Shown one piece after another: positions 3,001 through 9,000 of a stretch of 44,997 bases of DNA. A program made the position numbers. Location of the stretch: IMG/VR virus record IMGVR_UViG_2917408641_000002, positions 1-44,997 of that record; one strand, given 5' to 3'. The stretch's first letter is position 1. The number at the start of each line of letters is the position of its first letter. The DNA comes from a virus. Its lineage: Duplodnaviria > Heunggongvirae > Uroviricota > Caudoviricetes.

Positions 3001-6000
3001 TTGTAGGCCACGCCGATGTGATAGCCGATGGTTGTACCGTCACTCATCTGGAAACTGAATGGTTCATCGTAGGTCTTCATTTGCTTGAAGGTAGGGAAGA
3101 TGTAAACCTCAGTATTCCAGCCAGTCCAGTAGCGACCAACACCGACCACCTCACCGACGCCTTTGTCGTCGCCCAGTTTATTTACCTTGATGCCAACATT
3201 ACCTGGTTCAACGCGATCGCACCCGACAAGGCTAATGGTCGGCAGAACAATGGCTAAAGCAAAAATAATTTTTTTCATCTTTTATCCTTAGTGAAAGAAA
3301 GACCCTTGTAAATGGCATAAATGCAGGGCGGGGTCAGAAACGCCAGTGCAAAGCCAGAAATAACTGCTATCGTATCCTTCATGGATATAAGGAACGGAAC
3401 GAGTAATCCGTAAATGCATGCGATAATTGCCAGTAAAATTACTATTGTGAAATACAGTCTCATTGGTCTGTGGTATCCCGATATTTTTAACCGACTGACA
3501 GCGCAATAAAGAGAATAATGATTTCAGTTAGTGTCAGCACTGTGGCAAGGATTAAAATCAGTTTTACTCTGTTTAATTCACGGTTGCTTTTCATATAAAC
3601 GGTTAGTAAAAAACGGAAGAATTATATTCTTCTTAATATTTAATGTGTCACTGGCGCTTCTGGCATACCATGAGTATTCAGATCGTGAATCATTTCATCC
3701 AGAAGGAGTTCAAGCCCTTCGCGCCCCATAGCAGAAACAATGAAACCATTATCAGGATCTGCGATGAGCATATTTTGATAGAGAAACAGAACTCGCCCCA
3801 TGCCTTCAGCTTCGCCATATTTTTCAATAAACCCCCATTCGACATGGTTTTGCAGGGCAATGCGAAGTGGCCCGGGGTAGATACTCAGGCAACCATGTTT
3901 CCCCTTGTAAATAACTGCGCGATCTGTAGTTCCGTTATCGTTAGGGATATCAATGGTGCCGTTCTTATACTCCTCTTCATTAATAAATACCGTTACATAC
4001 AGCCAGCGCCACTGTGCAACCTTCATATCGATAGAACAGTTTTCTAAAATCCCGGACTCATCGGCTTCTGCTAGGCACTGGAGAATGCTTAAACCGCGTG
4101 AATTTGGATAATCGTATTCACCGGCATCAAGACGTCGCACAGCTTCAACATAATCAATAGTAGTGTCACCAATCTTTATTCCATGCGTTGTTACTTCAGG
4201 TTTGAATTCTGAATTTTTCATAAAGTCTGTTCCGCTTGTTTATTTGCAGGTGGAATAATCGTGTAACCAGCCCTTTCCGCCATCCACAAAAAAGTGTCCA
4301 TACTGCCAACGAATTCATCGTCTAACAGATGCTTTGAATAAGTGACCTTGCCGTTTTCGATGGTGAGGAAGAGTCTAACTTTTTCATGAGTTATGTTTTG
4401 CTGTTTTTCTTTCATTTATTTATCTCCCATATGCTTTGCGCAAATACAGGTTGGCTATATGAAGATAAGAATCTCCATGTTGTGCAATGAGGCAGGCAGT
4501 TTTATACGATGCCTTATGTTTCAGGAAAGTCATAACATAATCTCCTGCGAATAAAGGTTGCAACAATCCCCGGCGATAAAACCGTAATAAACATTCAGGG
4601 AATATTTATTGTTATTGCGCTAATTCTTTTTCGGCAGCAGCTTTTGCATATTCACATGCAAAATTCAGAATTTCGCTGCCAAGTGTTTTTGTTTCGTGAT
4701 TACTTGACATATGTAATGCCTGTGTTGCATGCAATAAATGATAAACATTTACCGCAAATGAGTCCGGCTCCAGACAAATGCCTTCATAATCATCTTGTTG
4801 TGAGGTTGTTTCTGTCATTGCTCCTGAAGTGCATGCGAGCCTGTTTTTGACAATTCTCTTTCCTCTAATCACTATATCGGCAACATCTATTGCCTTTACA
4901 ACCTCCGGGAGAAGTTCCGGGTTTGTATAATCAAAGTCATCAACATGGAGAACAGTTATGTTTTCGAACTTTTTCATGGCTTCCTCAGCTGACTTATATG
5001 TTCTGCTATATAGCGAGTCTCAGAAGTGTTTTCATATTGAGACTGTTTCCGCAATGATTGATAAAAATGTTCGCATGTACCTTGAGGGGCGAAGCGGCGA
5101 TTATGTCACCATTGGTATTGGTTCTTCCGTAGAAGAGCTTTGATCTTACCCACCAATAGTGGACACAGGACTAAGTGAGTAAACTCTCAACCAGAGGTGA
5201 CTCATGACAAAACCAGTATCAATCAGCAAGAAGCCCCGTAAACAACATACGCCTGAATTTCGTAACGAAGCCCTGAAACTCGCTGAACGCATCGGTGTGG
5301 CCGCCGCAGCCCGTGAACTCAGCCTGTATGAATCTCAGCTTTATGCCTGGCGCAGTAAACAGCAGCAACAAATGAGTTCGTCAGAGCGCGAAAGCGAACT
5401 GGCCGCTGAAAATGTCCGCCTTAAACGACAACTGGCGGAGCAGGCTGAGGAACTGGCCATCCTCCAAAAGGCCGCGACATACTTCGCGAAGCGCCTGAAA
5501 TGAAGTATGTCTTCATCGAAAATCATCGGGCAGAGTTCAGCATCAAAGCGATGTGTCGTGTACTTCGGGTTGCCCGCAGCGGCTGGTATGTCTGGCTCAG
5601 GCGTCGTCACCAGATGAGCCTGCGCCAACATGTTTCGGCTCACCTGCGATACCGCTGTTCATAAGGCATTCTTTGAGGCAAAGCAGCGATACGGTGCTCC
5701 CCGCCTTGCTGACGAACTGCCGGAGTTCAATATTAAAACCATTGCCGCCAGCCTGCGTCGTCAGGGGCTGCGGGCGAAAGCCGGCCGGAAGTTCAGCCCG
5801 GTCAGCTACCGTGCACATGGCCTGCCCGTATTGGAGAATCTGCTGGAGCAGGACTTCAGCGCCAGCGGCCCGAACCAGAAGTGGGCGGGTGACATCACGT
5901 ACTTGCGTACCGATGAGGGCTGGTTGTATCTCGCAGTAGTCATCGACCTGTGGTCACGCGCCGTTATTGGCTGGTCGATGTCACCGCGAATGACAGCACA

Positions 6001-9000
6001 ACTGGCCTGTGATGCACTGCAAATGGCGTTGTGGCGGAGAAGACGCCCGGAAAGCGTCATTGTTCATACGGACCGTGGTGGTCAATACTGTTCAGGGGAT
6101 TATCAGGCGCTGCTGAAGCGACACAACCTGCGTGGCAGTATGAGTGCGAAAGGCAACTGTTATGACAATGCCTGTGTGGAAAGCTTCTTTCATTCGCTGA
6201 AGGTGGAATGTATCCACGGGGAACGCTTTAGCAGCCGGGAAATAATGCGGGCAACGGTGTTTAATTATATCGAGTGTGATTACAATCGCTGGCGTCGTCA
6301 CAGTGCCTGTGGCGGTCTCAGCCCGGAACAATTTGAAAACCATAATCTCGCTTAGGGCCGTGTCCACATTACGTGGGTAGGATCACTTCGCGAGATAAGG
6401 AGCAAACTTGTTGAGATGCGTCATGGTGTTGCTGCTCCTCACTTTTTGGTTGCTCCGGAGGAGTAACCTCGCCAGTTAACAGCCACATCGGATCACAGCC
6501 CAGAATATTAGCCAGTGGGATAAGCATACTGATAGTTGGTTCATAGTCTCCGCTCTCCCACTGGATGATGATATCTTCATCGAGATTGAGCAGCCTGGCC
6601 ACTTCGGCGGTTGTTAAGCCACAGGCTTCGCGTTGGGTGCGGAGGCGGTTGTTGATTACAGTATTTTTGCTCTGTAAAAGCATTGCTGACGATAGCTTTC
6701 TGGATATGCTATTTGTCATATCCCATGCCAGTCCTGCGCATGACTCGATATCGCCAGAGAGCGTAGCATCTGGCGTTGCTTTGGCTATTAGTGTAATGAG
6801 GCTGCCGAGGTTTTTCAGTTCTTCAAGACAGTCAAGAGTTGTAGCTTTATTGATCATGAGATGATACCTCAGTTACGAACTTTGTTTTATGGTAACTAAG
6901 GTATCAAGGTGTGGCAAGTGATTTTTGATACTTTGGTTTCTTTTTGTGTTTTGAGTCTGGTCAGAAAATATCCCACCTGGCATCAACCACAACACCTACT
7001 ATTTCGCAATCATTGTCCATTTCTATGATTGGATATTGTGGATTAAGGGGCTTTAGAAACGCCTTTCCCATTTCAGAAATATATTTTTTGAATGTTGCTT
7101 CATTGGTGGATTTTTTTCTGGCGATGACGTAACATCCTGAAAAAACTTCTTTATCTGGGTTGACAAGGATCGACATTCCTTCAGGAAATGTTATTCCTAC
7201 GGGCGAAGTCATTGAGTCTCCGTGCACTTCCAGCCAGAACCCCCTCTCACCAGCGTATTTTACAGAATGCCTCCAGTTATCCTGATCATACATGTTGTAG
7301 TCATCACCAGCAGTTGCGAATAATCCTGCCTGAACCCAGTTAATTACAGGGTAAGAGTGTGCTGTGTCTCTCTGTGGGCAGCTCTTAACATTATTTTCCC
7401 AATGCTTATCTTTTGCATCTCCGCTCTGAAGCCACTGCGGTGAACACTGCAGTGCAGCTGCGACTTTAAAAAGGGTGTCACCGTTGAAACTTTTTGTAAG
7501 GCCTTGCTCGGCTTTACTGATTGCAACTCTGGTGACCCCTGCTTTTTTAGCCAACGCATCTTGCGTTAACCCAGCTTTTTGTCGTGCGTTGATGAGGCGT
7601 TCACCTAAAGATTTCATTTTTCTTCTCCTTTCATGGCTGCTGATACTAAAGTAACAGAATCTCTTGATACTTTGGATTCTCGTGTTTAACATTCTTGGAT
7701 AACAGAGTATCTGGTGTGAGACTAAAGAATGACCCTTTATGAAATATTAAAAACTCAATTTAAAACCAATGCCGCTATTGGCCGCAGGTTCCCAAAGAAA
7801 GGAAAGCCTCGTGGCAGTCAAGGTGTTGGAAAGTGGAAAACGAGAGGTGTTCCAGAGGACGTAGCTATTCTCTGCCATCTGGATCCAAGTATCCCGTATA
7901 TCCATCCTGATTTAGCGCACACAGAAGAGGGGCAAGGTAAGCAATCGGAGGTGTGATATGTCACAGTGCTTAGCGATGCTTCAGAAACTTAATCAGCGTA
8001 TTAAGGCTGGGAAGAATTTCTGCGGGAGTTTTGATAACCGGAACAATCCGCCTGTCTTCATAGAGCTCACTAGCTTTCAGTGCGTTAAAAAAGTTATCTA
8101 CGGCTTGTTGGTAACTTCGTGCTTGTCTGCTGCTCAGGTGAGGGCGCAGTCTTCTGAAATCGTCTCTGGATATATGTGGCATATCCCGTTTTCCGTCTCG
8201 GCAACCCTCGCGGAAGGCGTCAAGGATCAGGAACAATTCATCAGCGACGGCATTGAACTCTTTCCGCTTATCTCGATTTTTGGCAAGCCAGTGTCCGAGC
8301 CAGGCGCCAAGTCCAAAAGCACTAACCGTCCAGATGAAGGTAACAAGGCGCGGGTTGGTATTGAACAGAAGAACAAACTCACTCCAGATGATTCCCATAA
8401 TTTCTGGCGACTCCTTTTTGTTCAGGTAGCGGCATTTCTTGTTGCATTTCCTGTTGGTGCTTATTTCAGCATGCGGGCAAATCTTCGCAATGACTGGCGT
8501 AAGCATATCCAGAAAGGAAGACGCCTGAAAGTACCCGTACTGGCTATGTTCTCCATCACAGGCATCAGCGATCGCATTAAACCTCGATCTTGGCAGATAT
8601 GGGAACGGAAGCATTGGTTTCAGGATATGCGGATATGCCATGGGATCGAGGCTGCTTATAGGGATGCATGGCTCTGGAAAAAGCGCGTAACTGAGAAGTG
8701 CTGAACCGTGATCCCAATAATTTATCCGTAAGGAGGTATCAGTGAACACCGCAATTTTTAACGATAAAGCATCCATGACCAGCGTTGAGATCGCAGAGTT
8801 GGTGGGCAGCCAACACAAAGATGTTAAGCGCAGCATTGAAAGGCTCATGGATAAGGGGATTATTCGAAGTGCGCCAATGGCGAATTTCGAAATAATCAAC
8901 AACTTAGGGTTAAAACGAAATGTAGGTGCTTACATCTTCGAAGGCGAACAAGGTAAGCGCGACAGCATCATTGTCGTCGCTCAGCTTTGCCCCGAATTCA

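Follow-up and report, generated by a model that had tools for sequence, protein, structure and literature searches.

Insertion sequences (ISs) of the IS3 family transpose by a copy-out-paste-in route, those of the IS3 group produce a short target-site duplication of 3 bp, and, by the usual ISfinder rule, copies with more than about 95% DNA identity are regarded as the same element. According to two descriptions of the family (PMC3219604, PMC5771124), the transposase is OrfAB, which is produced by a programmed frameshift, and the element passes through a figure-of-eight and a circle before inserting with a short duplication. IS3 and IS911 share this organization: orfA lies in phase 0, orfB in phase -1, and a programmed -1 frameshift joins the two into a fusion transposase (PMC1636345, PMC3219604). 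Their transposase likewise consists of an N-terminal DNA-binding part, with a helix-turn-helix (HTH) and a leucine zipper, and a C-terminal DDE part. One member of the family, ISEc16, is listed as an element of 1244 bp with 19 copies in Escherichia marmotae HT073016 (PMC6650469). This study concerns a copy of ISEc16 in IMG/VR virus record IMGVR_UViG_2917408641_000002 (Caudoviricetes), positions 1 to 44,997, a stretch of 44,997 nucleotides referred to as the window. Between the integrase gene (1-1314) and the tail fibres, the window is collinear with the Stx2e-converting phage phiP27 (86-98% identity), and its repressor, L10, and L08 genes are ordered as in phiP27 and SE11-type prophages. We consider it likely that ISEc16 inserted into the early-left region of this phiP27-like prophage, and that one additional T breaks its orfB, giving a non-autonomous copy.

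A first-pass annotation, made by a model from the sequence of the window, had placed an IS3-family element between inverted-repeat ends at 5141 and 6385, and both coordinates proved to be exact. The ISEc16 copy occupies 5141-6385 on the + strand, and its 1245 bp correspond to the 1244-bp reference plus one T. Its ends and flanks are as follows:

5138-5140, no strand: left target-site duplication, CTT, 3 bp
5141-5179, + strand: left inverted repeat, which begins with 5'-TG; 30 of its 39 positions agree with the reverse complement of 6347-6385
6347-6385, + strand: right inverted repeat, which finishes with CA-3' and is the source of a new stop codon (6369-6371, - strand) and 5 codons of the neighboring HTH gene (see below)
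6386-6388, no strand: right target-site duplication, CTT, 3 bp

The left end at 5141 reads TGATCTTACC..., and the right end at 6385 reads ...GGTAGGATCA; these terminal inverted repeats (5'-TG...CA-3') are imperfect, with 21 matches in the first 26 positions and 30 in 39 overall. Identity with ISEc16 (99.2-99.9%) extended over the full length, 1245/1245 bases. The best matches were the copies on plasmids pEM148 and pEM76 of E. marmotae HT073016 (99.9%), and E. coli copies labelled 'IS3-like element ISEc16 family transposase' by the Prokaryotic Genome Annotation Pipeline (PGAP) were 99.2-99.5% identical, two fetched copies of which carry the PGAP note 'programmed frameshift'. The name ISEc16 is based on these PGAP-named copies and the published length, rather than on the ISfinder type sequence. 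By megablast, 4,472 of 5,426 complete E. coli genomes carried the element, as did 2,213 plasmids; a band of 80-90% identity among the E. coli and plasmid matches probably represents IS3 itself. Only one copy was found within the window. The TG...CA inverted repeats, the 3-bp duplication, the orfA/orfB overlap, and an rve/DDE domain in the OrfB part are all present, and all the structural criteria tested place the element in ISEc16 and the IS3 family.

The first-pass annotation had recommended a comparison with an uninterrupted homologous prophage, and the empty site was found in E. coli SE11, the prophage of which reads ...GTAGAAGAGCTTCGCGAGATAAGG... across this position, with one CTT and no IS. 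Since SE11 has this single CTT without an IS, the CTT at both flanks of the window copy, which the first-pass annotation had read as a target duplication, results from a true insertion with a 3-bp target duplication and is not a chance match. A query made of the joined flanks matched 283 E. coli genomes and phage phiP27 (SE11 at 97.4%), and C311, CEA601S, SF-088, and phage PhiR49_2 aligned over the whole junction without the IS. None of the 5,426 complete E. coli genomes had the IS at this site, as no record spanned the junction in the junction search, and an exact-match scan for the left junction in GTDB representative genomes gave nothing. Another ISEc16 copy, in E. coli N18-04097, has CTC at both flanks, which fits a 3-bp duplication. 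ISEc16 inserted into the phiP27-like prophage at a CTT located 30 nucleotides upstream of the stop codon of an XRE-type HTH gene, with duplication of this CTT. A terminator-like hairpin at 5120-5139 (+ strand) was rejected as a part of the intact site, being flagged solely through a T-rich tail contributed by the IS end.

The coding parts of the element are arranged as follows:

5204-5503, + strand: orfA, intact, 99 amino acids, HTH_Tnp_1 (Pfam E 7.9e-10), identical to the reference orfA
5465-5470, + strand: CAAAAG slippery site for the programmed -1 frameshift, same as in the reference
5500-5664, + strand: 5' fragment of orfB (-1 frame), which opens at the ATGA overlap with orfA and has an early TAA stop at 5662-5664
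5631, + strand: inserted T (IS position 491), CAACA[T]GTTTC, outside any homopolymer run, making an ATG at 5630-5632
5630-6355, + strand: remaining 3' part of orfB, shifted into the orfA frame, an open reading frame (ORF) of 241 amino acids from the new ATG with the rve/DDE core

The first-pass annotation had described an orfB frame opened at the ATGA (5500) and closed at 5662-5664, with the catalytic core open in the orfA frame, and had predicted a 1-nt indel somewhere within 5618-5664. The frames were all as described, and alignment with three 1244-bp ISEc16 copies located the indel as a single T at 5631, the sole difference from the pEM148 copy; in the T-less form of intact ISEc16, this site reads CAACAGTTTC. 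The window copy has the same TG...CA ends, orfA, CAAAAG site, and 3-bp duplication as reference ISEc16, and differs by the T at IS position 491. The reference possesses a continuous orfB of 284 amino acids and an OrfAB fusion of 383 amino acids, whereas the fusion in the window consists of 153 amino acids (142 native residues and 11 aberrant ones), due to the stop codon at 5662-5664. The displaced core gave significant matches with Pfam rve (E 1.5e-29) and rve_2 (E 1.7e-22), and with NCBIfam transpos_IS3 (284.8 bits over profile positions 138-369, the cut-off being 160). No clear Shine-Dalgarno sequence or ribosome-binding site was seen before the ATG at 5630. The RNA 3' of the slippery site had a minimum free energy of -27 kcal/mol (z -1.95), and 6 of 200 shuffled sequences folded as well, which is suggestive at most. 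Translational bypass of the break was also considered and rejected: frame 0 contains stops at 5501-5503 and 5615-5617, so that no single frameshift yields the full-length protein. The window sequence around 5631 was found at 0 of 587 matching places in the complete E. coli genomes, and a 33-mer containing the extra T had no exact match in GTDB representative genomes or metagenome contigs.

Since the sequence as given does not allow the full-length transposase of 383 amino acids, this copy is probably non-autonomous, the loss of transposition activity being deduced from the frames. The first-pass annotation had suggested 'transposition-defective': this holds in that no full-length transposase is encoded (153 against 383 amino acids), but 'non-autonomous' is the better term because both ends are intact. 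For the same reason, the copy could in principle be mobilized in trans by the transposase of other ISEc16 copies, 19 of which are reported for strain HT073016 of the likely host species, E. marmotae. It would still produce OrfA (99 amino acids) and, after the -1 frameshift at CAAAAG, only the OrfAB fragment of 153 amino acids, which would keep the DNA-binding part without the DDE catalytic domain. A fragment of IS911 OrfAB with 149 amino acids, which has no catalytic domain, remains able to bind the IS ends and to synapse them (PMC1636345). This engineered OrfAB[149] is close in size to the predicted ISEc16 product; however, it comes from a different element, and the last 11 residues of the window product are out of frame.

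The insertion affects two convergent genes, the parts of which are now distributed on both sides of the IS:

6369-6857, - strand: HTH_3 (XRE-type) gene, phiP27 L10 homologue, PHROG 4739, now 162 amino acids
5106-5138, - strand: original 3' end of the HTH gene, now separated from it, 10 codons and the stop (5106-5108)
4958-5143, + strand: 5' part of a small gene, 61 codons, with a TGA stop formed by the first three IS bases
6389-6466, + strand: displaced 3' part of the small gene, 25 codons plus TAA

With the IS in place, the HTH protein has 162 amino acids and ends with ...SREVILPT before the stop. When the IS and one CTT were removed in silico, the protein had 167 amino acids and ended with ...SREALLRKNQYQW before the stop, and the SE11 homologue has the same length (167 amino acids) and the same tail, in agreement with the earlier proposal that the gene exchanged 10 codons for 5 derived from the IS. 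The change alters the C-terminal tail and leaves the HTH domain (residues 72-126) intact. The tails are poorly conserved among relatives, and phiP27 L10 (138 amino acids) is entirely without one. Because phiP27 L10 has no tail at all, the clipping of this gene is probably harmless, and the tail itself is unconstrained and dispensable. In annotation, 'C-terminally altered' describes the HTH gene better than 'disrupted'.

The gene on the opposite strand was omitted from the first-pass annotation. When uninterrupted, it encodes 86 amino acids from the ATG at 4958, with GGAG located 7 nucleotides upstream, and a TATAAT occurs at about 4924-4929, near which its transcript would be expected to begin. 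The gene converges with the HTH gene and runs antisense to its tail, and the IS interrupts it behind residue 61. The remaining ORF (4958-5143) matched PHROG 6104 with an E value of 3.2e-34 over profile positions 1-55 of 80 only, and is, therefore, a truncated member of this family. Full-length homologues of 82-88 amino acids with 57-97% identity were found in E. albertii, Salmonella, and Citrobacter, always between an L08-like gene and an HTH gene, and the immunity regions beside them differ in type. Uninterrupted close relatives, SE11 among them, keep the gene whole, in contrast to phiP27, the small gene of which is truncated at about 30 codons. PGAP leaves it unannotated in SE11, SF-088, C311, and CEA601S.

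Substitutions in the 43 codons free of overlap with any other gene were counted by codon position. The numbers at the first, second, and third positions were 3, 0, and 16 between the window and one relative (locus L018), with 15 synonymous and 2 non-synonymous codon changes, and 6, 3, and 18 between the window and another (locus L015). In the overlap, where third positions of the small gene are second positions of the HTH gene, these positions still had the largest share of changes in most pairwise comparisons. The excess of third-position substitutions in the overlap-free codons argues that the protein is under purifying selection. On these comparisons, the small gene is a real gene, and the constrained gene hit by the IS is this 86-amino-acid gene and not the HTH tail.

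A profile search against 1.84 billion representative proteins gave 364 relatives at E <= 0.001, most of which have 60-110 amino acids, with the common motif YVLL(Y/W)S.SQ.CFHIE. In an AlphaFold model, the block-mean predicted local distance difference test (pLDDT) values were 90-93 for residues 11-70, the order of secondary structure elements was strand-strand-helix-strand-helix, and the cut after residue 61 lies inside the last helix (58-72). The protein had no match in Pfam, NCBIfam, or PADLOC, and no significant match among solved structures. The 3' ends of the small gene and the HTH gene overlap by about 100 nucleotides in every relative examined (including loci L015, L016, and L018), and in one distant relative (P0048) the small-protein domain is fused to an XRE-type HTH domain; together, these arrangements hint that the small protein and the HTH protein may work together. 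The recognition that the gene actually interrupted belongs to a widespread and usually unannotated family on the + strand is the one addition of some value from this locus.

The surroundings of the two genes on the leftward side are as follows:

4612-4977, - strand: first leftward gene past the IS, phiP27 L08 homologue, PHROG 5451
6862-6941, - strand: PL-type region, with a promoter-like TTGCCA-17-TACCAT (6917 to 6889) and overlapping operator-like repeats
6961-7617, - strand: cI-type repressor gene (HTH_3 and Peptidase_S24), same length as the SE11 'LexA family protein'

From a cro-like gene (7729, + strand), the leftward order is the cI-type repressor gene, a spacer of 103 bp, the HTH gene, the IS, homologues of L08, L07, L06, and L05, xis, and int. 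The spacer contains inverted repeats (6862-6876 and 6892-6906) built on TTGATAC/GTATCAA, and a 17-mer at 6925-6941 recurs with 16 of 17 positions at 7664-7680, beyond the repressor gene in the cI-cro intergenic region. The consensus match and the repeats support a putative PL-type promoter under repressor control, of which the HTH gene would be the first gene. The gene order agreed with the earlier claim that the IS separates this putative PL-type region from the downstream leftward genes: 1245 bp now lie between the putative promoter and HTH gene on one side and L08 through xis and int on the other. Because the IS has no gene on that strand, its 1245 nucleotides would be untranslated on the leftward transcript, and this untranslated antisense RNA would probably reduce leftward expression by polarity.

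As sequenced, the prophage contains other lesions, which bear on how the insertion is to be judged:

14428-15387, + strand: fused ORF of 319 amino acids, RusA (residues 8-98) and antiterminator Q (residues 95-310)
17269-19994: ISCro1 (IS66 family), with TnpA, TnpB, and TnpC ORFs at 17313-18884, 18904-19251, and 19251-19928 (- strand); 99.7% identical to the E. marmotae pEM76 copy
33582-33590: added G in a G-run, splitting the tape-measure gene (ORFs 32947-33696 and 33524-34861)
36417: lost A in an A-run, splitting a baseplate assembly gene (ORFs 36265-36606 and 36438-37319)

The two frameshifts were identified by comparison with the intact prophage of E. coli STEC379, which is 98.4% identical to the window. 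In relatives, rusA and Q are two separate genes with about 86 more bases, and, therefore, a deletion fused them here. ISCro1 lies within 16612-20625, a stretch without a phiP27 match at the position of phiP27 stx2e; compared with phiP27, no stx genes were seen in the window, and ISCro1 and unrelated DNA occupy that locus. The window also differs from phiP27 in its set of tRNA genes, its longer L10 homologue (167 amino acids), and an ipaH-type effector gene near the right end. The latter (41731-44034, - strand) encodes a protein of 767 amino acids with leucine-rich repeats and a C-terminal NEL E3-ligase, as in type III effectors of the IpaH/SspH type, and lies in DNA without a phiP27 match. The second IS, the rusA-Q fusion, and the two frameshifted tail genes indicate that the prophage is probably defective, still carrying the ipaH-type effector gene.

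These lesions raise the question of whether the insertion had any consequence, since the prophage may already have been defective and the genes touched may be accessory, in which case the IS would be a neutral passenger in dead DNA. We lean against this explanation, while regarding it as a serious possibility. The frameshifted tape-measure and baseplate genes, the fusion of rusA to Q, and ISCro1 at the stx locus of phiP27 are all in line with it, as is phiP27 itself, which has neither the HTH tail nor an intact small gene. However, these events may have occurred in any order, and purifying selection acts on the small gene in many prophages, which makes its loss not obviously neutral for the lysogen. 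Moreover, xis and int now lie behind 1.2 kb of untranslated antisense RNA, which would be expected to lower their expression from PL.

Several results weigh against the reading that we favor. On the side of its effects, a promoter and terminator scan of the region gave sites no more often than in shuffled sequence, and the - strand of the IS had no predicted intrinsic terminator, so that polarity would depend on the expected action of Rho alone. On the side of the element, the window copy has no substitutions over 1244 bp relative to the pEM148 copy, leaving one indel standing alone, and the window contains two more single-base frameshifts in homopolymer runs (33582-33590 and 36417), a pattern that indel-prone sequencing could leave. 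The last two points, and the lack of this T in any other copy among E. coli complete genomes, GTDB representatives, and metagenome contigs, are what would be expected if the T at 5631 were an artefact of sequencing or assembly, the element in fact being an intact, autonomous ISEc16 of 1244 bp and only the insertion being biological. We judge this to be unlikely, although not markedly so. Unlike the other two indels, the T sits between A and G outside a homopolymer run. Furthermore, genuine decay of this element is common, since ISEc16 copies of independent genomes carry single-base indels elsewhere: the copy on E. coli C7 plasmid A has a deletion of G at position 1023 in orfB (with the PGAP note 'frameshifted'), and that on E. 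coli plasmid p111 (locus L008) has an extra C at position 499 in orfB, the ends being intact in both. As the positions differ, the indels in C7 plasmid A, p111, and the window are independent events. The extra C of p111 is only 8-9 nucleotides downstream of the position of the T in the window, one short stretch of orfB being hit by two different events. The prophage also bears separate evidence of real decay, namely the second IS and the deletion of about 86 bp that fused rusA to Q. This fusion was itself considered as a further 1-nt error and excluded by the size of the deletion, and it says nothing on sequencing quality. The tail-gene frameshifts at 33582-33590 and 36417 may be either prophage decay or assembly errors. 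Pending read support at the extra T, the appropriate annotation of the element is ISEc16 with a frameshifted transposase pseudogene.

A more elaborate proposal gives the copy a regulatory function: read-in from the promoter of the small gene would yield OrfA and the end-binding fragment of 153 amino acids, which would dampen other ISEc16 copies, while the insertion would remove a conserved accessory protein of the prophage and uncouple xis and int from PL, which could help to fix the prophage with its ipaH-type cargo in the chromosome. We regard this as very doubtful. The idea that the split frame is native to this IS subtype, with nothing broken, which the first-pass annotation had named as a finding that would refute its view, has practically no probability, because all three aligned 1244-bp copies have a continuous, uninterrupted orfB of 284 amino acids, PGAP gives a single programmed frameshift for the two E. 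coli copies, and none of the 587 matching places in E. coli shares the window sequence at 5631.

On the favored reading of an ISEc16 insertion with a broken orfB, the finding is an ordinary one: a known, catalogued element, in a copy that is probably non-autonomous, within a decaying prophage. Prophages often contain IS insertions, frameshifted IS copies are likewise routine, and the general importance is small.

The host of this prophage is probably E. marmotae or a close relative, because the two IS variants each have their nearest matches among E. marmotae copies and the ipaH-type gene resembles those of that species, in which 11 ipaH-like genes, two of them chromosomal, have been reported (PMC6650469). 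Downstream of Q, four tandem tRNA genes (16458-16767, + strand) were identified as Met-CAT, Lys-TTT, Thr-TGT, and Gly-TCC, whereas phiP27 has tRNA-Ile and tRNA-Arg there. Just to the right of ISCro1, in DNA absent from phiP27, an ORF of 141 amino acids (20146-20571, + strand) showed a weak match with the TerB domain (Pfam E 2.1e-08).

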